From Clostridia bacterium (lineage in GTDB: Bacteria > Bacillota > Clostridia > Oscillospirales > Acutalibacteraceae), in the NCBI GenBank assembly GCA_017403265.1, contig JAFQOJ010000017.1, forward strand, positions 1,196-65,195: a DNA stretch of 64,000 bases. Direction: 5' to 3'. Below are positions 4,985 to 40,135 of this stretch, piece after piece (position 1 is the first letter of the stretch; each line of letters opens with the position of its first letter). The notes beneath the pieces are model-generated. The model did not search any database. It worked only from the letters and a program-made list of their open reading frames with translations, and was not told where the DNA came from. The position numbers and the translations under genes are program-made.

Positions 4985-6112
4985 TTATTCTCCTGTGTTA
5001 TTTATTTCGCCTACCGAGGCGGCTTTGAGATATGCGTTAATAAATCCGTCAAGGTCACCGTCCATAACGGCACTTATATTGCCCGATTCAAAACCTGTTC
5101 TGTGGTCTTTTGCAAGGGTGTACGGCATAAATACATAAGAGCGTATTTGCGAACCCCAAGCAATTTCCTTTTGAACACCCTTAATATCATCAATTTTTTC
5201 AAGATGTTCGCGTTCTTTAATTTCCAAAAGCTTTGATTTTAGCATTTTCATTGCTTTTTCACGGTTTTGGAACTGACTTCGCTCGTTTTGGCAAGCAACC
5301 ACAATACCCGTAGGTATGTGGGTAAGCCGTACCGCAGACGAGGTTTTGTTTATATGCTGACCGCCTGCACCTGACGAACGGAAAACATCCATCTTAATGT
5401 CTTCTTCCTTTATTTCGATGTTATTATCATCCGAAATTTCGGGCATAACTTCAAGAGACGCGAAGGAGGTATGGCGTCTGCCCGAAGCATCAAAGGGAGA
5501 TACACGCACTAATCGGTGAACACCCGATTCACTCTTTAAGTAACCATAAGCGTTTTCACCTTCTATGGAAATTGTAGCGCTTTTAAGGCCTGCTTCGTCG
5601 CCATCTAAAAAGTCTAAAATCTGTGTTTTAAAGCCGTGCCTTTCGGTCCAACGGGTATACATACGCACAAGCATTGAAACCCAGTCCATAGCTTCTGTAC
5701 CGCCCGCACCCGCGTGAAAGGTTAAAATTGCGTTGTTTTTGTCATATTCTCCTGTTAAAAGGGTTTGCAGTCGCAGGCTTGCAAGACCTTCTTCATACTC
5801 TTTTATATTAGCTTCAATTTCTTCTATCAGCGATAAATCGCCCTCTTCATCACCCATTTGGATTAGCACCTCTAAATCTTCAAATAGAGTGCATAAATTA
5901 TCATAGCTTTCAACAGTATTTTTTAGTTTACCTGTTCTTTGCAGTATTTTTTGAGAGTTTTCTAAATCGTCCCAAAAATTAGGTGCACCTGCTTTTGCTT
6001 CAAGCTCTTCAATTTCTCTTAAAAGGCTATCGTATCCTAAAGCAGATTTAAGCTCTATAAGCTCGTTCTTACTGCCTGAAAGCTGTAAGCTTAATTCCTC
6101 AAATTCAAGCAT
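4985..6112 (-). CDS. prfB: Peptide chain release factor 2
   Basis: SPF tripeptide (VSPFDASGRRHTSF), GGQ motif (SSGAGGQHINKT), full-length collinearity with RF2. It is encoded in a single frame. Confidence 0.95.
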   Translation of the reverse strand: MLEFEELSLQLSGSKNELIELKSALGYDSLLREIEELEAKAGAPNFWDDLENSQKILQRTGKLKNTVESYDNLCTLFEDLEVLIQMGDEEGDLSLIEEIEANIKEYEEGLASLRLQTLLTGEYDKNNAILTFHAGAGGTEAMDWVSMLVRMYTRWTERHGFKTQILDFLDGDEAGLKSATISIEGENAYGYLKSESGVHRLVRVSPFDASGRRHTSFASLEVMPEISDDNNIEIKEEDIKMDVFRSSGAGGQHINKTSSAVRLTHIPTGIVVACQNERSQFQNREKAMKMLKSKLLEIKEREHLEKIDDIKGVQKEIAWGSQIRSYVFMPYTLAKDHRTGFESGNISAVMDGDLDGFINAYLKAASVGEINNTGE

Positions 6113-6139: not shown

Positions 6140-7060
6140 TTAATTCTTTTGTAATACAAATGCACACCAGTTATCCTTGTAGCATTCCTTTAAAACAGTA
6201 AAGCCTTTATCGTTTGCAGCGGCTAGAACATCGTCTTTCCTGATATCTATAATACCCGATATTATGAAAACCGCATCCTTTTCTAGGAACTGTTCAACAC
6301 TCTCGAACAGTTTTATTATAACATCCGCTACAATATTAGCGCAAATAACATTATATTTACCGCTTATTTTATCAGCCAAATCGCCTACTATAAATTCACA
6401 TTTATCGGCAATATTATTTATCTCGGCATTTTCTTTAGCGGTTTTTACTGACTGTGCATCAATATCCACACCGATTGCTTTTTGAGCGCCTAAAAGCACC
6501 GAAGCAATACTCAAAATACCACTACCCGTACCTATATCAAGCATAGTTGTATTAGAGTCTATATGATTTTCTAAAAGCGACAAACAAAGCGATGTTGTTG
6601 CATGGGTACCTGTACCGAAAGCAGCACCTGGGTCGATATTCAAAACCACCCTATTGTCCTTATTATCATAAGTCTCCCAGCTTGGTACGATAACCAACTT
6701 TTCGCCAATTTCACTTGTATGAAAATACTTCTTCCAATTTTCATTCCAATCCTTATCATCAACGCCCTTGTCGTCAATCTGGAATTCGATATTCTCTGCA
6801 GTAAAACGCTCTTTTAAAAATTCAAGCGACTCTAAAGCGTTATCACATTCAGATATGTAAATATGAATAAACGATACAGTGCGGTCCTTTGCCAAAAGCT
6901 GCTCGTCAATTAAATTTATATGGGCTATTTCTTCTGCCTTTTCTTCCAAATCGGAATAATCTTCAATATAAATTCCGTAAGGTACCGTCATATTAGCGAT
7001 AGCCGCAGCTAAATCGGTATCCTTTTGCGGCACCTTAATTGTAATTTCAGTCCAGTTCAT
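6140..7060 (-). CDS. prmA: Ribosomal protein L11 methyltransferase
   Basis: PrmA-type N-terminal domain (MNWTEITIKV...) and SAM-binding motif LDIGTGSGILSI. Confidence 0.9.
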   Translation of the reverse strand: MNWTEITIKVPQKDTDLAAAIANMTVPYGIYIEDYSDLEEKAEEIAHINLIDEQLLAKDRTVSFIHIYISECDNALESLEFLKERFTAENIEFQIDDKGVDDKDWNENWKKYFHTSEIGEKLVIVPSWETYDNKDNRVVLNIDPGAAFGTGTHATTSLCLSLLENHIDSNTTMLDIGTGSGILSIASVLLGAQKAIGVDIDAQSVKTAKENAEINNIADKCEFIVGDLADKISGKYNVICANIVADVIIKLFESVEQFLEKDAVFIISGIIDIRKDDVLAAANDKGFTVLKECYKDNWCAFVLQKN

Positions 7061-8192
7061 TTATAACTCCTAATATTTCGCCTTTGGTGTTTTGTACAGT
7101 ACCCTGTACCATTCCGTTGCGTCCGCCACCGCGAACAGTAAGTCTACCCTTAAACTCTTTAAACCAAGCATCAAGTTTTTCGGCATCGCCACATATTGCA
7201 AATGAATATTCGCCTTCACTTCCGCTAAACACCGCCCTGATACCGCCATATTCTTTATATAAAGAATCGGCTAAAGATTGTAAATCTTTAATATCAAAAC
7301 CGTCTTGGAATACGGCGGAAATTTGACCCTCTACTTTATAAGTTTTTGCAAAACTTTCAATAATACGCTTTTTAAGTCCACCTATTTGGTATTTAAGACT
7401 TTCTATGTTTTCAAGTTGCTTTTTCACTGCAGCGGCAATTTCGTTTTGAGGGCTGCAAAGTAGTGCCGAAATTTCCAAATCATTAAAATAACGATTATTG
7501 TAGTCTTTGAGTGCGCGTCTGCCGCATACCGCCCAAATACGAATGCCGCCCTTGTTTTTGGCAAAATCAAGTATCTTTATAATGCCTATCTCACTCGCGC
7601 TGTTAACGTGGGGCGCACAGCAAGCACAACTGTCACAATCTTCGATTTCAACTATTCTAACACCGCTTTGTAAATCAAGCTTACTACGGTACTCTAAATC
7701 CTTTAAATTTTCGGGATAGTAGCAGTTGATTTTCGCATTACGGTATATTACTTCGTTTGCTTGTCTTTCTATCTCTATTAAATTTTCGCGAGTGAGCATT
7801 CCGTCAAAGTCCATAGTCATTTCGGTTTCACTCAAATGAAAGCCTACATTGTTGTAGCCGTAAAGAGAATTAACAATGCCCGAAATTATATGCTCGCCTG
7901 TATGCTGTTGCATAAAATCAAAGCGGCGCTCAAAATCTATTGTTCCGGTAATTTTTTTACCCACTTCTAATTGCTTTGTGGTGTAATGGTAAATAACGCC
8001 GTCCTTTTCTCTAACATCATATACACGAACATCGTCTAAATAACCTGTGTCCGACGGTTGACCGCCACCCTCAGGGAAAAAGGCAGTTCTATCTAAAATT
8101 GTAAAATAACCGTCTGCTTTTTCGTAACATTCTATTACTGTAGCGCCAAATTCTTTTAAATGCGAATCGTTATCGTATAATTTTTCGGTCAT
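7047..8192 (-). CDS. alaX: Alanyl-tRNA editing protein, AlaX-L type
   Basis: tRNA_SAD editing motifs HTGEHIISG (HxxxH) and CCAPH (CxxxH). C-terminal DHHA1-like GGGR/GG segment. It lacks an aminoacylation domain. Confidence 0.8.
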   Translation of the reverse strand: MTEKLYDNDSHLKEFGATVIECYEKADGYFTILDRTAFFPEGGGQPSDTGYLDDVRVYDVREKDGVIYHYTTKQLEVGKKITGTIDFERRFDFMQQHTGEHIISGIVNSLYGYNNVGFHLSETEMTMDFDGMLTRENLIEIERQANEVIYRNAKINCYYPENLKDLEYRSKLDLQSGVRIVEIEDCDSCACCAPHVNSASEIGIIKILDFAKNKGGIRIWAVCGRRALKDYNNRYFNDLEISALLCSPQNEIAAAVKKQLENIESLKYQIGGLKKRIIESFAKTYKVEGQISAVFQDGFDIKDLQSLADSLYKEYGGIRAVFSGSEGEYSFAICGDAEKLDAWFKEFKGRLTVRGGGRNGMVQGTVQNTKGEILGVINELD

Positions 8193-9562
8193 CCTAATCT
8201 TTCCTTTACTATATATGCCGCTTTATAAATATCGCCGCCGCCCATTGTTATTACAATATCGTTTTCCTTTGCGGTTTCAATTATTTTGTCTGCTATATTC
8301 GAAAAACCGTCTACAATGCAAACATCCTTAAGTCCTTTAGCTAAATCTTCGGATGAAATACCATAAGTATTAATCTCGCGCGAGCCCATTATTGGGGTTA
8401 AAATAACCTTATCCGCAATAGATAACGCTTTAATAAATTCATCCTTTAAAAGTGCTGTACGCGAAAAAGTAAAGGGTTGAAACACCGCAATAACATTGTT
8501 ATAAGAAAGGTTTTTAGCGGCAGTAAGGGTTGCAGTAATCTCGGTTGGGTGGTGTGCGTAGTCGTCTGCTAAGCAAAATCCATTAAACTCGCCCAAAAAC
8601 TCAAAGCGTCTACCAGCCCCTGTGAATTTTTCGAGTGCATCTTTTATACCGTCTGCACTCACTCCCATATCATAAGCCACCGCAAAAGCCGACAAAGCGT
8701 TTAAAATATTATGGTGACCGGGGATATGAAGCGCTAAATCAATAATTTTTTCGCCGTTTTTATAAACATCAAACGAAAAACCGTACTTGCCTTTTTCTAT
8801 ATTATCTGCATAATAGTCGTTGGACTTATTAAACCCAAATGTAACCTTTTCTACCTTTGCATTATTGCAAGCAGTAACAGATAATTCATCATCACCGTTT
8901 ACATAGCAAAGCTTACCCGAAGATACAAACTTAGTAAAGGAACTCACAAGATTTTCCATAGTTTTAAAGTAATCAAGGTGGTCATTATCTATATTAAGCA
9001 AAACCGTAATATCGGGGGAAAGCTGTAAAAAGGTATCTACAAACTCGCACGACTCACAAACCATAGTTTCACTTTTGCCTGCAATACCATTAGAATTTAT
9101 AAGCGGGAGCTTACCACCGATAACTGCTGTAGGATCACACTTGTTTAATATTAAAATTTGTGTTATCATAGATGTAACAGAGGTTTTGCCGTGCGTACCG
9201 CATACACCTATAACATTATCGTATTTGCGGGTAAGCGCACCTAAGAGCAGGCTTCTCTCCATTGTAGGAATACCTAGTTCTGCTGCCCTTAATAATTCGG
9301 GGTTATCCTTACTAATAGCCGCCGAGTAAACCACAAGCTCAGCATTTTCTACATTTTCTCCTTTATGCCCCATAAATACCTTTATGCCCAGATTTTTAAC
9401 ACGCTTTAAAGGGTCGCTTTCATTATTGTCAGACCCTGTTAAAATATAACCTTTAGTATGCAAAATTTCAGCAAGCGGACACATACCGCTACCGCCGATA
9501 CCTATCATATGAATTTTTTTAACATTGTCAATTATTTTATCCTGAAGTGACAGTTGTTTCAC
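8189..9562 (-). CDS. murC: UDP-N-acetylmuramate--L-alanine ligase
   Basis: N-terminal IGIGGSGM Rossmann motif, P-loop GTHGKTS, Mur ligase central and C-terminal domains. Confidence 0.95.
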   Translation of the reverse strand: MKQLSLQDKIIDNVKKIHMIGIGGSGMCPLAEILHTKGYILTGSDNNESDPLKRVKNLGIKVFMGHKGENVENAELVVYSAAISKDNPELLRAAELGIPTMERSLLLGALTRKYDNVIGVCGTHGKTSVTSMITQILILNKCDPTAVIGGKLPLINSNGIAGKSETMVCESCEFVDTFLQLSPDITVLLNIDNDHLDYFKTMENLVSSFTKFVSSGKLCYVNGDDELSVTACNNAKVEKVTFGFNKSNDYYADNIEKGKYGFSFDVYKNGEKIIDLALHIPGHHNILNALSAFAVAYDMGVSADGIKDALEKFTGAGRRFEFLGEFNGFCLADDYAHHPTEITATLTAAKNLSYNNVIAVFQPFTFSRTALLKDEFIKALSIADKVILTPIMGSREINTYGISSEDLAKGLKDVCIVDGFSNIADKIIETAKENDIVITMGGGDIYKAAYIVKERLG

Positions 9563-17552: not shown

Positions 17553-17586
17553 ACCCGAACGCTAAAAACGTTCGGGTTGATTTTTA
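17553..17586. terminator. Bidirectional terminator (spoIIIA operon / TIM-barrel gene)
   Basis: Stem ACCCGAACG (17553-17561) / CGTTCGGGT (17569-17577) with a 7-nt loop, followed by TGATTTTT. Confidence 0.7.
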
Positions 17587-18495
17587 ATACCTTGAAGCAA
17601 AGCTTTTAATTGTTTTTACCGTAAAATCTGCGGTAGCTATCATAAGATTATCGCTTATGTAGCCGAAATTGGCTTCCGAATTATAAACCCCTTCATAACC
17701 AACTTCTTTGAGAGCTTTAAAAAAATCAGTCCAATCGGTAGTACCTGCACCTATAACTCGGTGATGGTCAACAATACCAAAATTATCGTGAAGGTGAAGA
17801 CAAGCAACATTTTTACCTAATTTTCTTACAAACTCAGCGGCTGAAGGCTCGTTATGTTGAGCAGTAAGGTTTATATGTCCTGTATCAATACAGCAAACAA
17901 ACCATTCGCCGAATTCGCTCATTCTTACATCATCGAACAAGGCTTTAAACTCGTCGTAGGCGCCAAAAAAGTCAAGCTTATTACCTAAGTTCCAGTTAGA
18001 GCCAACCGTTTCAAGCGCAACCTTTACCCCGTTTTCCTTTGCAAAGGGTAATATGCTTTTAAATGCTCTGCGTGCTCTAAAGCGCATCTCTTCGGGTGTA
18101 GCATTAGGATTTGAAAGGTCACTGCCCGGATGGAAAACACAGTATTTTGCGCCTAAAATTCTTGCAGCCTTTAAATCACCTTCGGCATTTTTGGGGAATA
18201 CCACCGTATTGTACTCTTCATCGTTTTCCATAAAGGTACGCATTGTACCGTGTGTTTGGAAAACCACAAGACCGCGTTTTTCAACTTCTTCTCTTATTGC
18301 TTTAAAGTGCGCTTCAATTTCTGCATCCGATTTCAAATAAATAGAATCATTATCACCGTAAAGATTATAGCGGTTAAGGTCAAAATCTATACCGTCAGCG
18401 CCTACTTCTTTTGCTATATCTAAAGTTTTTTCTAAACCATATTTTGGTATAAAATCGCAAATAGCAAGACTAATTTTTCTTTCCATTAAAGCCAC
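17584..18495 (-). CDS. Sugar phosphate isomerase/epimerase family protein (xylose isomerase-like TIM barrel), paralog 1
   Basis: AP-endonuclease-2/xylose-isomerase-like TIM barrel pattern (ALETV..., HLHDN...). Substrate unknown. Confidence 0.7.
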   Translation of the reverse strand: MALMERKISLAICDFIPKYGLEKTLDIAKEVGADGIDFDLNRYNLYGDNDSIYLKSDAEIEAHFKAIREEVEKRGLVVFQTHGTMRTFMENDEEYNTVVFPKNAEGDLKAARILGAKYCVFHPGSDLSNPNATPEEMRFRARRAFKSILPFAKENGVKVALETVGSNWNLGNKLDFFGAYDEFKALFDDVRMSEFGEWFVCCIDTGHINLTAQHNEPSAAEFVRKLGKNVACLHLHDNFGIVDHHRVIGAGTTDWTDFFKALKEVGYEGVYNSEANFGYISDNLMIATADFTVKTIKSFASRY

Positions 18496-18499
18496 TCCC

Positions 18500-19426
18500 C
18501 TAATCTATAAATCTTGTGATAAAATCCCTAATGGTTTTTATCGTAAATTCGGCAGTAGGTACGATAAGGTCCTCACTTATATACTTTAAAGTAACTTCCG
18601 AATTAAAGTTATTATTATAACTTATTTCCTTAAGCGCATTAAATACGTCAACCCAATCGATTGTGCCACCGCAAAGTATACGGTGACCGTCAAAATAGCC
18701 GTCGTTATCATGTAGATGCAAGCAATATACGTTATCACCCATACGCCTTATAAATTCGGCAGGAGTCGGTTGATTATGCTGACCTGTCATATTTATATGT
18801 CCCGTATCGATACAGCACACCCACCATTCAGCACATTCGGGGTTCATATCTCTAACGTCGTCAAATAATGCTCTAAACTCATCATAAGCGCCAAAAAAGT
18901 CGAGCTTATTATTTAGTGTCCAGTTAGAGCCTACTGTTTCGAGCGCTACTTTAACGTTGTTTTCTTTACCAAAGGGTAAAATGCTTGAAAAAGCGCGACG
19001 TGCTCTAAAGCGCATCTCTTCAGGTGTAGCATTAGGATTTGAAAGGTCGCTTCCGGGGTGGAATACGCAAACCGGTGCTCCCAAAATTTTAGAAGCCTTT
19101 AAGTCACACTCTGCATTTTTAGGGAAAGTAACGGTATTATATTCTTCATCATTTTCTCTAAAGGTACGCATTGTGCCATGGGTTTGAAAAATTACTAAGC
19201 CGCGTTTTTCCACTTCATTTTTAATGTTTTCAAAATAAGCCGAAAATTCTTGCTCGCTTTTCAAATAAATAGAATCAGGATTTGTAAAAAGATTATAATC
19301 ATTTAAATCAAAATCTATTCCGTCAAAGCCTAATTCTTTTATAATATCCAAAGAATCAAGAAAGCCGTATTTATCCGCCCAAGTGCCCGATAAAGCACCT
19401 ATACACAGACTGATTTTTCTTTCCAT
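18500..19426 (-). CDS. Sugar phosphate isomerase/epimerase family protein, paralog 2
   Basis: Collinear with the neighbouring gene and roughly two-thirds identical by eye (for example VFHPGSDLSNPNATPEEMRFRARRAF is shared). Confidence 0.7.
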   Translation of the reverse strand: MERKISLCIGALSGTWADKYGFLDSLDIIKELGFDGIDFDLNDYNLFTNPDSIYLKSEQEFSAYFENIKNEVEKRGLVIFQTHGTMRTFRENDEEYNTVTFPKNAECDLKASKILGAPVCVFHPGSDLSNPNATPEEMRFRARRAFSSILPFGKENNVKVALETVGSNWTLNNKLDFFGAYDEFRALFDDVRDMNPECAEWWVCCIDTGHINMTGQHNQPTPAEFIRRMGDNVYCLHLHDNDGYFDGHRILCGGTIDWVDVFNALKEISYNNNFNSEVTLKYISEDLIVPTAEFTIKTIRDFITRFID

Positions 19427-21081: not shown

Positions 21082-21425
21082 CTAATTTTATTCTCAATAG
21101 TAATACAAGAAGATGTAAGTATTCGCCTGATTCTGCCGCAGTGATTTCTATGTTTTTTAAATACAATTTCATCGATAAAACCAGAAGAAAATAAAAGTTT
21201 CAGCCAGCCTTCTGTTTCATTACATTCTTTACGTGCAATTTTAAGTTTCGAAAGCATATCAGGTAAACTTTGCGGATATTGGGCTTCCATAACATTTGCA
21301 AAAACACTTGATGAAGATTTACGAATTTGAAAAACAGCATTAGAATTTCCCGTTATATTTTTACATAAAGCTTCAATTTCAATTGCTAACTGTTCAGAAT
21401 ATTTCAAAAGTACATTATTGCTCAT
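21075..21425 (-). CDS. Four-helix-bundle protein (23S rRNA IVS protein / Avd-like family)
   Basis: About 116 aa, all-helical, with the family-typical central segment LKIARKECNETEGWLKLL. ATG at 21425 with a GGTGA SD. The track start at 21506 runs into the promoter. Confidence 0.7.
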   Translation of the reverse strand: MSNNVLLKYSEQLAIEIEALCKNITGNSNAVFQIRKSSSSVFANVMEAQYPQSLPDMLSKLKIARKECNETEGWLKLLFSSGFIDEIVFKKHRNHCGRIRRILTSSCITIENKIST

Positions 21426-21441
21426 AATTATCACCAAAATA

Positions 21442-21470
21442 ATTGTAACACAATTAAACAAATTTCGCAA
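21442..21470 (-). promoter_or_regulatory. Sigma-A-type promoter of the four-helix-bundle gene
   Basis: On the minus strand: TTGCGA (21470-21465), 17-nt spacer, TGtTACAAT (TACAAT at 21447-21442). Confidence 0.55.
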
Positions 21471-21476
21471 CCGAAT

Positions 21477-21652
21477 CACGGCTTTGCCGTGTATGTAATC
21501 CGACAAAGTCGGTATGTAATCAACACGAAGTGTTGTATGTAATCAATCCAAAGAAAAATACATACAAGGCTTATGCCTTGATAACATACAGTTCGCAAAG
21601 CGAACTGATTACATTCCGCTTACGCGAATTACATACCAATCCTTTGGATTGG
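21477..21652. repeat. Array of seven 10-nt motif copies (GTATGTAATC / GATTACATAC) alternating with seven distinct short hairpins
   Basis: Plus-strand copies lie at 21491-21500, 21512-21521 and 21535-21544. Inverted copies lie at 21556-21565, 21580-21589, 21607-21616 and 21627-21636. Hairpins lie at 21477-21491, 21500-21512, 21522-21534, 21565-21580, 21590-21606, 21614-21628 and 21636-21652. Confidence 0.85.
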
Positions 21653-21659
21653 ATAAAAT

Positions 21660-21690
21660 AAAAGGACTACCGAAGTAGTCCTTTTATTTT
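21660..21690 (-). terminator. Intrinsic terminator following tRNA-Lys (structurally bidirectional)
   Basis: Perfect 11-bp stem AAAAGGACTAC (21660-21670) / GTAGTCCTTTT (21675-21685) with loop CGAA and T-runs on both strands. Confidence 0.8.
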
Positions 21691-21766
21691 TGGTGATCCA
21701 TCGGGGATTCGAACCCCGGACACCTTGATTAAAAGTCAAGTGCTCTACCGTCTGAGCTAATGAATC
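21691..21766 (-). tRNA. tRNA-Lys (anticodon UUU), CCA encoded
   Basis: The reverse complement folds as a 76-nt cloverleaf. Acceptor stem GATTCAT/ATGGATC, D arm GCTC-AGACGGTA-GAGC, anticodon arm CTTGA-CTTTTAA-TCAAG, T arm CGGGG-TTCGAAT-CCCCG, then ACCA. Confidence 0.93.
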
Positions 21767-21784: not shown

Positions 21785-21813
21785 ATTATATCAACTACTT
21801 ACGCGAATGTCAA
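21785..21813 (-). promoter_or_regulatory. Consensus sigma-A promoter of tRNA-Lys
   Basis: On the minus strand: TTGACA (21813-21808), 17-nt spacer, TATAAT (21790-21785). The tRNA 5' end lies about 19 nt downstream of the -10. Confidence 0.75.
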
Positions 21814-38590: not shown

Positions 38591-38602
38591 TAATGATTGT
38601 AG

Positions 38603-38784
38603 TTTGTCGAAACGCTTAAAAGCGCTTCGACAAGCCGATTTGATCGGCTTTGCACAATTGGATTTTTATAAATTCAATTGTGCAAAACACTCATTGCAAT
38701 GGATATAGTCAAATTTTCTTCGAAAATTTGCACAAAAATCGAAGATTTTATGTCGAAACAGTAATTCTATTTTCTGTTTCGACT
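38603..38784. repeat. Cluster of six short hairpins with reiterated GTCGAAAC and TTTGCACAA motifs
   Basis: Hairpins at 38606-38631, 38632-38650, 38649-38686, 38710-38730, 38735-38749 and 38752-38783. TGTCGAA at 38605-38611 and 38751-38757. TTCGACA at 38626-38632. Confidence 0.8.
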
Positions 38785-39591
38785 AACTATAACAATTATT
38801 ATAAATATTCCTACTGCACATTTTGTGATACAGGTAGCCGAATACACAAAGTACAAAAATCCGTCTAATCGGGTAAAAAGATTACCAAAGGTTACTGTAC
38901 TGCCTGCCGCCGAATACGGGTAACTGAGTTGCCCAGAAAACTTTATACCGAAAAGCAAAACCGAATTTAAAATAGTAACAGCAAGGCATAAAAGTCCTAA
39001 AGAGAGTCCACCTAATAAGACACCTTTTTTAATTTTTTCGTGTCTTGCAAAAACACCTAAAGCTATAGACGGGATTACAAGACTTTTAAAATAAAAAATG
39101 CTTTGTGAAAATAAAGTGTTAAGACTTGGCAGTTTATATATAAAAATATTTTTAAAATTAAAATCCTTAAAGGTAGATAAAAAGAAAAACACTACCACCG
39201 CTACAGACAAAAAACCGCAAATAAGCGAAAATTTAAAAAGTGTGTTTGCTTTTTTGAAACTTAAATACACCAACAGTAAGCCAAACGGCAGTAAAATAAA
39301 CAGACGCGGTGTACTAGGCAACAGATTATTGCTTATAAACCTTACAAAGCTTATAAAGGTATCGCCTACAGTGAAAACTACGAGCAAAAAAATCGGTAAT
39401 ACGGTTATTTTATTTATGGGTATAAAATATGCAATAAATCCAAAAATCAGCGATATAAAGCAGGAAATTAAAAACGCCAAAAAATTATATCTATCGGCTG
39501 TTCCTACAGGCGCAGTAATGCAAGCATTACCCAAAACAAAAAGTACCGATAGCATTAAAAAATGCTTAGAATAACACTCATTAACCCGCAC
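38767..39591 (-). CDS. Spore germination protein, GerAB-like permease subunit (short, 274 aa)
   Basis: Polytopic membrane protein with a GerAB-like N-terminus (HFLMLSVLFVLGNACI) and C-terminal FTRLDGFLYF segment. Last gene of the GerA-type operon. Confidence 0.6.
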   Translation of the reverse strand: MRVNECYSKHFLMLSVLFVLGNACITAPVGTADRYNFLAFLISCFISLIFGFIAYFIPINKITVLPIFLLVVFTVGDTFISFVRFISNNLLPSTPRLFILLPFGLLLVYLSFKKANTLFKFSLICGFLSVAVVVFFFLSTFKDFNFKNIFIYKLPSLNTLFSQSIFYFKSLVIPSIALGVFARHEKIKKGVLLGGLSLGLLCLAVTILNSVLLFGIKFSGQLSYPYSAAGSTVTFGNLFTRLDGFLYFVYSATCITKCAVGIFIIIVIVSRNRK

Positions 39592-40135
39592 CGAAAATCA
39601 ATCCCCCGTCATTTATGCTAACTCTTGGCAGAGCGGCGGTATAATTTGTAGCGGTAAGCTCAAACAGTCGGTTTTTATAATGCTTATTTTGCTCTAATAA
39701 CCCCATAATATCAAACCCCACAGTCAAAGAAGATACCGGCTTTACCGACAAAAGCTGTTGCGCATTTTCGGTTTTTATAAGAAATGCCGAAAGTGTGATT
39801 TCTTCATTTTTAACACAGTATTTAGCCACTTCACTTAATTCATTTTGAGTTATGCCATCTCCAATTACCAAAACACCGCAGTGGGATAACAAAAGCGGTT
39901 GAGTGCATTGCTTTTCAATTCTCATTATTGCACCTCTAAGCGTCTTTCCCTCACCCTTTAAAAGCTTAACAGACTGCTTTGTATCCTCGCTATTTATTAT
40001 CACCGATTCAAAGCAAACCTTGTAGCTATCATTCTCTTTATCAAAACCCATACTGGATACTAAATATTCGGGACCGCGTTTCTGACAACCGCACAAAAAT
40101 AAACCTAAGGCTAAAATTAAAAAAACTTTTTTCAT
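39581..40135 (-). CDS. Germination lipoprotein resembling the N-terminal half of Ger(x)C (184 aa)
   Basis: Lipobox LFLCGC followed by the YLVSSMGFDKE segment typical of the GerAC N-terminus. It lies between the A- and B-type genes. Confidence 0.55.
   Translation of the reverse strand: MKKVFLILALGLFLCGCQKRGPEYLVSSMGFDKENDSYKVCFESVIINSEDTKQSVKLLKGEGKTLRGAIMRIEKQCTQPLLLSHCGVLVIGDGITQNELSEVAKYCVKNEEITLSAFLIKTENAQQLLSVKPVSSLTVGFDIMGLLEQNKHYKNRLFELTATNYTAALPRVSINDGGLIFGAG

Follow-up and report, generated by a model that had tools for sequence, protein, structure and literature searches.

The subject of this analysis is an intergenic array in a 64,000-nt stretch of a Clostridia bacterium genome from the family Acutalibacteraceae (GenBank assembly GCA_017403265.1, contig JAFQOJ010000017.1, positions 1,196 to 65,195 of the forward strand), which we call the window and in which positions are counted. 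In a core part of the chromosome that also contains sigE, spoIIGA and cysK, a tRNA-Lys gene and its terminator are followed by 176 nt in which copies of a 10-nt motif, GTATGTAATC, alternate with short hairpins; the promoter of a gene for a four-helix-bundle protein of the PF05635 family lies directly beyond. The array is one copy of an apparently undescribed multi-copy repeat family of gut Clostridia. As a composite reading of the sequence comparisons, to which we give a probability of roughly 45%, we propose that each copy is a folded nucleic-acid platform whose motif copies, hereafter linkers, would be read by the four-helix-bundle protein.

Within the 64-kb window, three exact copies of GTATGTAATC were observed, all on the plus strand of the array, against 0.09 expected per window, and 0 of 100 shuffles gave three. 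Three minus-strand copies with one mismatch bring the span to 146 nt, and a seventh copy, AAATACATAC at 21556, has two mismatches; elsewhere in the window there is a single further one-mismatch match. A first-pass annotation of this DNA had described motif copies alternating with hairpins in two inverted halves, between the tRNA-Lys terminator and the -35 element of the four-helix-bundle gene, and had called for a count of the motif. The motif counts and the position agree with that description, all of the listed hairpins were found, the minus-strand copies bear out the inversion, and the motif is clustered in the array and not scattered over the window. The array also has the highest density of short perfect hairpins in the window (7 per 200 nt; the runner-up has 4), and it folds with z = -7.7 and -7.0 relative to shuffles of the two strands. 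Other dense hairpin clusters, at 7150, 38632 and 52867, were set aside as coding sequence or unrelated. The window corresponds to a metagenome contig of 65.7 kb. In a second, independent metagenome assembly (locus L188; L numbers denote our loci), no base differs in the array or the adjacent gene.

The element and its flanks are listed in Table 1. The coding sequence of the four-helix-bundle gene is corrected there to end at 21425 instead of 21428. A promoter scan of the locus found no promoter reading into the array, and a strong terminator stands between the array and the tRNA; a terminator is placed in the same way between RNA gene and array in the related loci inspected. The central segment of the array is complementary to CTTTGGATTG at 21642-21651, the loop and 3' arm of hairpin T, including a compensated loop change. 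Across the family, the stretch beyond the final linker in the promoter-side half tracks the terminal hairpin's loop and 3' arm, loop changes included, and its longest complement averages 9.0, compared with 7.3 +/- 0.21 in permuted pairs.

Table 1. The array of the window and its flanking features, in order of position.
Feature	Position	Strand	Remark
PF05635/TIGR02436 four-helix-bundle (Avd-like) gene, 116 aa	21075..21425	-	candidate trans-acting partner
Promoter of four-helix-bundle gene, TTGCGA-17-TACAAT with TG	21442..21470	-	abuts array
Outermost hairpin, CACGGC-TTT-GCCGTG	21477..21491	.	preceded by truncated linker GAATC (21473-21477)
Linker, GTATGTAATC	21491..21500	+	exact match
Spacer hairpin, CCGAC-AAA-GTCGG	21500..21512	.	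hairpin scan
Linker, GTATGTAATC	21512..21521	+	exact match
Spacer hairpin, (C)AACAC-GAA-GTGTT(G)	21521..21535	.	C(GAA)G loop on plus strand
Linker, GTATGTAATC	21535..21544	+	exact match
Central segment C, CAATCCAAAG	21544..21553	+	complementary to hairpin T's loop and 3' arm
Degenerate fourth linker, GTATGTATTT on minus strand	21556..21565	-	two mismatches
Spacer hairpin, CAAGGC-TTAT-GCCTTG	21565..21580	.	hairpin scan
Linker, GTATGTTATC on minus strand	21580..21589	-	one-mismatch motif match; innermost-type variant position
Spacer hairpin, (C)AGTTCGC-AAA-GCGAACT(G)	21589..21607	.	compensated variant of the family's CGTTTGC-AAA-GCAAACG
Linker, GAATGTAATC on minus strand	21607..21616	-	one-mismatch motif match
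Spacer hairpin, CGC-TTAC-GCG	21617..21626	.	GTAA loop on minus strand; family type TCGC-TTAC-GCGA
Linker, GTATGTAATT on minus strand	21627..21636	-	one-mismatch motif match
Hairpin T, CCAATCC-TTT-GGATTGG, then ATAAAA	21636..21652	.	conserved asymmetric tRNA-proximal end of the element
Bidirectional intrinsic terminator, 16-bp perfect hairpin flanked by A-run and T-run	21655..21690	.	separates tRNA from array
tRNA-Lys(UUU), stable-RNA gene preceding the array	21691..21766	-	Rfam, 71.5 bits
Promoter of tRNA-Lys, TTGACA-17-TATAAT with TG	21785..21813	-	12/12 match

We scanned for relatives with one genome per species, using as query two linkers 6-30 nt apart. At least 120 loci matched, so that the array of the window is no isolated case, and the matches listed come nearly all from metagenome-assembled genomes (MAGs) of animal and human guts, classed as Acutalibacteraceae, Oscillospiraceae, Oscillospirales or Clostridia. 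Usually, 3-5 units of a short perfect hairpin plus GTATGTAATC oppose 3-4 inverted units, the commonest patterns being +++---, ++++--- and +++----. The element is asymmetric: one end always reads GATTACATAC-CCAATCC-TTC-GGATTGG-ATAAAA and the opposite end AAATCA-hairpin-GTATGTAATC, and the marker GGATTGGATAAAA is confined to one end in 85 of 121 arrays. Among the matches listed, single MAGs hold up to at least three loci (JAZOBS, JAZRPH and JAFSBG, three each). In a scan of viral contigs only one of 18 matches, L133, resembles a true array, and we therefore do not regard the family as phage-borne.

Rfam contains no match to the window array (searched in E-value mode) or to the arrays of 18 related loci (gathering mode). 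Its matches in those 18 loci are tRNA, 5S, tmRNA and Gut-1 only, all off the arrays; the best model overlapping the window array is BTnc060, at 26.8 bits against a threshold of 228.9, and the best in the scanned region besides the tRNA is RF03091, at 27.8 bits against 94.4, outside the array. Full-text literature searches for GTATGTAATC and GATTACATAC returned primers and unrelated matches only. The earlier statement that no described family has this architecture therefore holds. We also dropped several resemblances, namely the MazF site (UACAU), the XerD arm of dif (TATGTAA), cre, IHF and Spo0A boxes, which the variant linkers do not support. The descriptive part of our account, a lineage-wide multi-copy intergenic module in the gap between a terminator and the next promoter, is in our view very probably correct. 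The family has probably escaped notice because all of its carriers are uncultured gut and rumen Clostridia.

The spacers keep structure and not sequence, as the first-pass annotation had supposed. Of the spacers, 156 of 179 on one side of the array and 124 of 155 on the opposite side are perfect hairpins over their full length, compared with 2-4% after shuffling; the hairpins are 8-18 nt long, and their sequences are largely distinct (115 of 170 on the left, 101 of 155 on the right). For covariation we used 68 distinct 13-nt units, in which 97.1% of stem cells are paired, compared with 54.6% in shuffled stems and 32-50% if the 3' partner is displaced by 1-3 columns. Compensatory changes, which the first-pass annotation had proposed to look for in related arrays, are abundant: 144 stem changes are double-sided versus 37 in shuffles, and the covariation score is 1.07 versus 0.21. 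To judge from these substitutions, the hairpins do appear really to form within one strand. Their pairs are about 97% Watson-Crick; among the remaining 3% or so, the sense strand has 22 G:T versus 12 A:C. The loop-closing pair is mostly C-G. Read in the orientation of the linker, 170 of 302 loops are C(G..A)G (100 GNA and 70 GNNA, with GTCA and GTTA frequent among the latter), and one is C(T..C)G. Because of this 170:1 polarity, we take the unit to be a G..A-loop hairpin plus GTATGTAATC, and the two halves to be the same unit on opposite strands.

These features bear on the material of the fold. The motifs d(cGNAg) and d(cGNNAg) form hyperstable DNA loops, and RNA favours GNRA and UNCG. The loop repertoire, together with the near absence of G:T pairs, favours DNA, without proving it. 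The array might instead act as a structured RNA, either as a read-through or antisense rod or as an RNase III processing stem on the stable-RNA operon, like those of intervening sequences (IVSs). The folding z-scores and covarying hairpins would fit such an RNA, as would the excess of G:T over A:C on the sense strand and the bidirectional terminator, at which plus-strand transcripts would end properly. We consider it quite unlikely, in view of the missing Rfam match, the lack of an inward promoter behind a strong terminator, the scarcity of non-Watson-Crick stem pairs (~3%), the common GTCA and GTTA loops, which are not GNRA, and the fact that the two halves are "sense" on opposite strands.

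The linkers behave differently from the stems. Their consensus is G-t-A-T-G-T-A-A-T-C, and across 68 arrays 217 of 251 departures from it stay mismatched to the opposite half, while 5 are compensated to Watson-Crick pairs; the two halves carry equal numbers of linkers in 27 of the 68 arrays. The first-pass annotation had imagined a rod of successive four-way junctions in which linkers of opposite halves pair. The minimum-free-energy fold draws that rod, but the uncompensated changes indicate that selection acts on linker sequence and not on the rod; that linker-linker pairing is not maintained also speaks against a structured RNA.

Placement is strict. A tRNA (at least 19 anticodons in total) has its 3' end 28-38 nt before the conserved end of the array in 41 of 80 oriented cases, and all 41 arrays share the strand of their tRNA and have hairpin T nearest to it. 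Elsewhere, arrays stand behind tmRNA (L057) or 5S rRNA (L091, by Rfam; L046 and L084, by reading of the flanks), displaced 3' fragments of tRNAs, a candidate unannotated small RNA or, occasionally, a protein gene; a hairpin with A-run and T-run always separates the RNA gene from the array. In the fetched loci, an array lies downstream of 47 of 64 cluster-final tRNAs and 0 of 36 internal tRNAs, a count that is biased because these loci were picked for carrying arrays. At the far end, 20 of 76 arrays have a conserved outward promoter module, TTGATT-N17(..CGCCGCTTTTATGC)-TATAAT-ACACCCAAGGCGGTGAT-ATG, whose -35 TTGATT is a truncated last linker. In some arrays the neighbouring gene converges on the array and no promoter is needed. 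Among the open reading frames (ORFs) flanking 80 arrays, the PF05635 gene is the only recurrent one, and neighbours are otherwise diverse. We rejected a private operator of the four-helix-bundle gene, as most arrays have unrelated neighbours, and attachment-site arm repeats of an integrated island, as arrays stand behind many tRNAs per genome without an integrase; the latter reading also fails because inserted islands leave the array with the displaced tRNA 3' fragment.

A protein-independent topological device, in which a row of easily extruded cruciforms would act on supercoiling, as a buffer or a mark, or would attract gyrase in the manner of BIME-2 (bacterial interspersed mosaic elements), would suit a location at the 3' edge of tRNA, 5S and tmRNA units. 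It would also suit the near-total Watson-Crick pairing, which is expected if both strands fold, and the C(GNA)G and C(GNNA)G loops, which match hyperstable DNA loops. BIMEs are described as binding gyrase (PMC2817692). The conserved, specific 10-nt linker across lineages and the one-strand loop polarity would both go unexplained, and stems as short as these, 3-7 bp, are poor at extruding unaided; we think this account very unlikely.

Another conceivable function is that of a duplex-DNA operator, iteron or centromere-like array, bound by a dimeric regulator of the downstream promoter. The first-pass annotation had offered such a site as one of two alternatives, by analogy with plasmid iterons and parC. 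Plasmid iterons and parC/tubC sites do share with the array two short direct-repeat blocks by a small gene's promoter; parC and tubC centromeres have two repeat blocks around a promoter. The conserved 10-bp site recurs at about two helical turns and the array abuts the -35, which in the 20 relatives with an outward module is the truncated last linker itself. Compensated perfect hairpins and strand-specific loops would have no explanation in such an operator, the unit varies from 19 to 27 nt across the family, and arrays with a converging neighbour have no promoter to serve. The family is chromosomal, multi-locus, behind at least 19 tRNA anticodons and not on phage contigs (the one real-looking array among the viral matches apart), and no partition or Rep gene adjoins it: we found no Rep, ParR or TubR partner among the ORFs flanking the arrays. 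We regard a plasmid-type site as unsupported and a duplex operator in general as highly improbable; the hairpin grammar argues for folded single strands rather than plain duplex DNA.

Several observations concern the RNA side of these loci. At ~395-580 in L185, a candidate small RNA of about 100 nt has its own TG-extended -10 and terminator and contains AAAATCCGGGTGAAACCCGGTAAAATTAAGGGTTTCTCACCAGTTCTTTTTTGGACACGAGAGACA; it matches no Rfam family at threshold (best STnc100, 31 bits against 47). Its relatives in L019, L180, L045, L079, L086, L033, L036, L076 and L101 include cases in which it replaces the tRNA before the array. In L012, L024, L028, L098, L115, L126 and L152/L156, the last ~18-25 nt of the tRNA are duplicated around inserts of 100-250 nt with scraps of other tRNAs, and the array remains beside the displaced fragment. 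From their sequence, these look like footprints of site-specific insertion at tRNA 3' ends.

Arrays within one genome resemble each other more (similarity 0.77) than do arrays of different genomes that follow the same tRNA (0.68) or other pairs (0.69), a pattern suggestive of mobility or of concerted evolution. Hairpins come from a mosaic repertoire, and the number of units varies. Sister families with the same architecture and position behind tRNA terminators use other linkers: GTGAAGT/ACTTCAC, ATGAAAT or GTGAAAT/ATTTCAC, and CATCATT (L033, L036, L097, L060; L200, L212, L213, L235, L243, L247, L279, L308). In L097, a GTGAAAT-type array is fused to half a GATTACATAC array. In other Clostridia we also found unidirectional arrays, with 5-11 GTATGTAATC units each and at a distance from tRNAs.

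Such dynamics could belong to a selfish repeat of the REP/REPIN (repetitive extragenic palindrome) or MITE (miniature inverted-repeat transposable element) kind, spread by a single-stranded DNA transposase or by gene conversion and favouring hairpin-rich DNA past terminators. The four-helix-bundle gene would then be a long-standing neighbour that array recombination shuffles among tRNA loci. The several copies per genome, the greater likeness of same-genome copies, the variable unit number, mosaic hairpins and sister families are what such a repeat would produce. It would also fit that many homologues of the window protein come from contigs of less than 1 kb, a length to be expected if repeats break the assemblies, that some arrays follow protein-coding genes, and that the A-rich ends (ATAAA...) could be a target duplication. 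Group IIC introns and IS1397 are known elements that target terminator or REP hairpins. On the other side, no transposase recurs beside the arrays, where the four-helix-bundle gene is the sole recurrent neighbour (no search with the PF01797 hidden Markov model was made). Placement and orientation relative to tRNAs are strict (41/41), and the array is identical in two independent samples. The 10-nt linker is near-invariant across taxa of very different G+C while the stems are free, which calls for a factor that reads sequence. We judge a selfish repeat unlikely, though it is the main rival of the platform reading.

The best candidate for that factor is the four-helix-bundle protein. The window protein scores 65.3 bits against Pfam PF05635 (cut-off 33.8) and 68.3 bits against TIGR02436 (cut-off 24), and its AlphaFold2 model has four helices at a pLDDT of 95. 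Foldseek gave TM-scores of 0.86 to BT_0352 (2RLD), 0.82-0.84 to Xcc0516 (2GSC) and ~0.80 to Avd (4DWL; ribonucleoprotein of a diversity-generating retroelement (DGR), 8UB7). The structures of 2RLD, 2GSC and Avd have five chains each, and from the five chains of 2RLD, 2GSC and 4DWL we infer that the window protein is likewise a homopentamer. Its own subfamily has at least 73% identity in the best 120 clusters, and PF05635 returns several thousand matches per subfamily query.

The gene is regularly found behind one array copy per genome, with its promoter abutting or overlapping the last linker. Among loci selected for the array, 18 close homologues (E 1e-21 to 1e-56) stand directly behind it, following tRNA-Leu-taa, Gln-ctg, Tyr, Arg-ccg, Asn, Cys, Thr-ggt and Arg-tct. 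When homologues were picked by protein alone, an array was upstream in 5 of 5 loci; the RNA genes before these arrays include tRNA-Glu-ttc, tRNA-Trp-cca and one tRNA with only its 3' end on the contig, and otherwise a tRNA fragment, a candidate small RNA or no recognised RNA precedes. Taken together, close homologues adjoin an array at more than 10 different tRNAs. Comparative context thus supports the part of the first-pass annotation that tied a protein-binding array to the four-helix-bundle gene; the array is no private operator, being a member of a genome-wide family. Homology between gene-carrying loci ends at the stop codon of the four-helix-bundle gene. A leader, CCCAAGGCGGTGAT-N3-ATG, follows just after that stop codon in L076, L121 and L132, and directly after the array promoter where the gene is absent, in L101, L033 and L111. 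By sequence, the four-helix-bundle ORF looks like an insert placed between promoter and ribosome-binding site, both of which are conserved.

Three other PF05635 subfamilies, about 33-48% identical to the window protein and to one another, each have their own repeat, and this co-variation of subfamily with repeat type is stronger evidence than adjacency. Members of the second subfamily, 4HB-2, always sit behind tRNA-Arg-cct or its displaced 3' fragment, with 35-47-nt inverted arms of ~five GATAA units around a GC hairpin (L157 1386-1482; L163 1383-1484; L152-L156; L116 ~1660-1800). These arms follow the tRNA-Arg with no U-run and extend up to the ribosome-binding site. Phage-type integrase genes upstream in several 4HB-2 loci mark tRNA-Arg(CCT) as an island integration site. 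The third, 4HB-3, lies between gyrB/parE-like and gyrA/parC-like genes, its ORF within 35-41-nt inverted arms of ~five AATTCGG/AATTCCG heptads (L164 1150-1190 / 1543-1583; L172 1153-1187 / 1546-1580; L011 ~5290-5385). The arms are 85-91% complementary and form an IVS-like arm-ORF-arm cassette inside the topoisomerase operon, a location between gyrB-like and gyrA-like genes that would also suit the topological device. A fourth subfamily, 40% identical and seen at one locus, stands behind a GTGAAAT-type hairpin-linker array. The 4HB-2 arms without a U-run and the 4HB-3 arms around an ORF in an operon suggest that those relatives are transcribed, which counts for a structured RNA, as does the precedent of PF05635 ORFs within 23S rRNA IVSs.

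We favour a mechanism in which the hairpins are structured spacers that would expose ~4-5 identical linkers, either in a single strand that has folded or in an extruded cruciform. The material is likelier to be DNA than RNA, because the array lies beyond a strong terminator, has no inward promoter, has few G:T pairs and has DNA-type loops. The linker row would be read by an oligomeric protein, for which the pentameric PF05635 protein is the best candidate, and array copies that lack the gene would serve as satellite platforms for binding. Likely consequences are (i) autoregulation of the four-helix-bundle gene, and (ii) boundary marking or insulation of heavily transcribed stable-RNA units from downstream promoters. 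A bolder generalization is that PF05635 pentamers are sequence-specific readers of ~five-repeat rows in folded nucleic acid, each subfamily co-evolving with its own repeat (GTATGTAATC, GTGAAAT, GATAA, AATTCGG), in a new repeat-protein system at stable-RNA gene ends with ORF-less satellites; this we hold to be speculative and on balance unlikely.

Several points weigh against the platform mechanism. Recombination between arrays would itself hold a downstream gene behind the array, so adjacency of gene and array is weak evidence, and most arrays have other neighbours. The fourth protein-repeat pairing is known from one locus, the number of linkers per half is 3-5 with no fixed five, and loop polarity relative to the tRNA is opposite in the sister families and the main family. 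No four-helix-bundle gene was found within 8 kb of the unidirectional arrays in other Clostridia. PF05635 proteins, in the Avd literature, are reported to bind nucleic acid without sequence preference. RNA keeps a share of the probability because the 4HB-2 and 4HB-3 repeats look transcribed. Finally, all carriers are uncultured MAGs, and binding by the protein is a deduction from sequence context.

Among known systems, the array works most like the REP, BIME and REPIN elements of Enterobacteria and Pseudomonas with their single-copy RAYTs (REP-associated tyrosine transposases), yet it fails their defining features. The shared traits, as described for those elements (PMC2817692, PMC3116915, PMC3337134), are extragenic multi-copy palindromic units, inverted arrays, location at 3' ends of transcription units, within-genome homogenisation, one repeat-flanked companion gene per genome and recognition of single-strand hairpins. 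In REPs, the conserved and recognised part is a palindrome of 20-40 bp and the linkers vary; in the array, the hairpins (typically 11-17 nt) are free and the 10-nt linker is conserved. REPs carry a GTAG/CGTC tag, whereas the array has the constant flank GTATGTAATC, and some but not most of its stems begin with CGTC. The REP companion is the Y1 HUH transposase RAYT, in contrast to a non-enzymatic four-helix bundle. REPs exceed 100 copies per genome, and for the arrays the matches listed give a lower bound of up to 3 loci per MAG. Array placement, unlike that of REPs, is specific for the ends of stable-RNA operons. Relative to known interspersed palindromic arrays, the inverted recognition logic, the target niche and the candidate partner protein are new.

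The second closest parallel involves Avd. The Bordetella phage DGR requires a DNA hairpin or cruciform in which the stem sequence can vary but the loop has to read 5'-GRNA, and this on the sense strand alone; swapping GAAA for CTTT abolishes function (PMC3240598). Both systems thus combine a pentameric PF05635 protein, as partner or candidate partner, with hairpins that keep structure, have free stem sequence and carry a one-strand G..A loop. In BPP-1 there is one hairpin by the variable repeat, its GC-rich stem 7-10 bp long, and it works with a reverse transcriptase and a template repeat; the array has two rows of short hairpins facing each other, 6-9 in all, and a linker that is conserved. 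By a crude motif test the locus is not a DGR: the window's sole YxDD ORF of 150 aa or more is at 7047-8222, among cell-wall and housekeeping genes, and none lies near the array.

The 23S rRNA IVSs with a PF05635 ORF, found in Leptospira, Coxiella and others, likewise attach a PF05635 gene and complementary arms to a stable-RNA gene, and in the same bacteria as the array the 4HB-3 relatives are true arm-ORF-arm cassettes. The array differs from an IVS in lying outside the RNA gene, past its terminator, in having the ORF outside both arms with its own promoter, and in having arms that are broken by hairpins and lack stem-type covariation between them. A looser, works-like analogy is with TRAP (11 GAG/UAG repeats) and HutP, in which an n-subunit oligomer reads n even repeats upstream of a gene; ~five repeats per arm in 4HB-2 and 4HB-3, and 4-5 in the main family, would parallel this. 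The fold is unrelated, and the array has 10-nt repeats separated by hairpins, probably in DNA. The array is not a CRISPR array: its repeat is 10 nt, its spacers are 8-18 nt and self-complementary, and its halves are inverted, whereas CRISPR repeats are ~23-50 nt in the same orientation, with unique spacers.

If the platform mechanism is correct, the arrays are a new class of bacterial interspersed repeat with inverted logic, hairpins free and linker conserved, and they are placed unusually strictly where tRNA, 5S and tmRNA units have their 3' edge. It would also provide a concrete candidate ligand for PF05635, which has many thousands of members and one that has been studied, Avd; that an Avd-like gene regularly stands beside one array copy hints at the ligand of this poorly understood family. 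The hairpin grammar of the arrays matches that of the cis element required by the DGR. The mechanism would further account for arrays that break metagenome assemblies and swap genes behind tRNA operons. PF05635 genes have been reported in CRISPR-Cas loci (PMC3936711), and the bolder generalization, if true, would link rRNA IVSs, the DGR Avd with its target hairpin, and these CRISPR-linked members.

We note some minor observations. In a metagenome scan with GTGAAAT, 24 of 120 loci had hairpin spacers, and many matches were unrelated. In five loci (L190, L195, L231, L251, L302), unidirectional four-GTGAAAT arrays begin directly behind a stop codon (TAAGCGCGCTTACGCGCGCG...). A conserved GC-rich structured stretch with GGGGACGGAAGGCCGTCCCC, CACCAAAAGGCTCCCC and GGGGAGCTG, possibly a separate conserved non-coding element, is shared by these loci some 70-300 nt beyond the first GTGAAAT. 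Elsewhere in the window, three TGTCGAA motifs (Spo0A-box-like) and two hairpins lie at 38600-38760, upstream of an ORF at 38767-39597 (minus strand). At 17584-19426, just upstream of an Asp23-like gene, two paralogous ORFs (303 and 308 aa) stand in tandem and are clearly similar from end to end, a recent tandem duplication.

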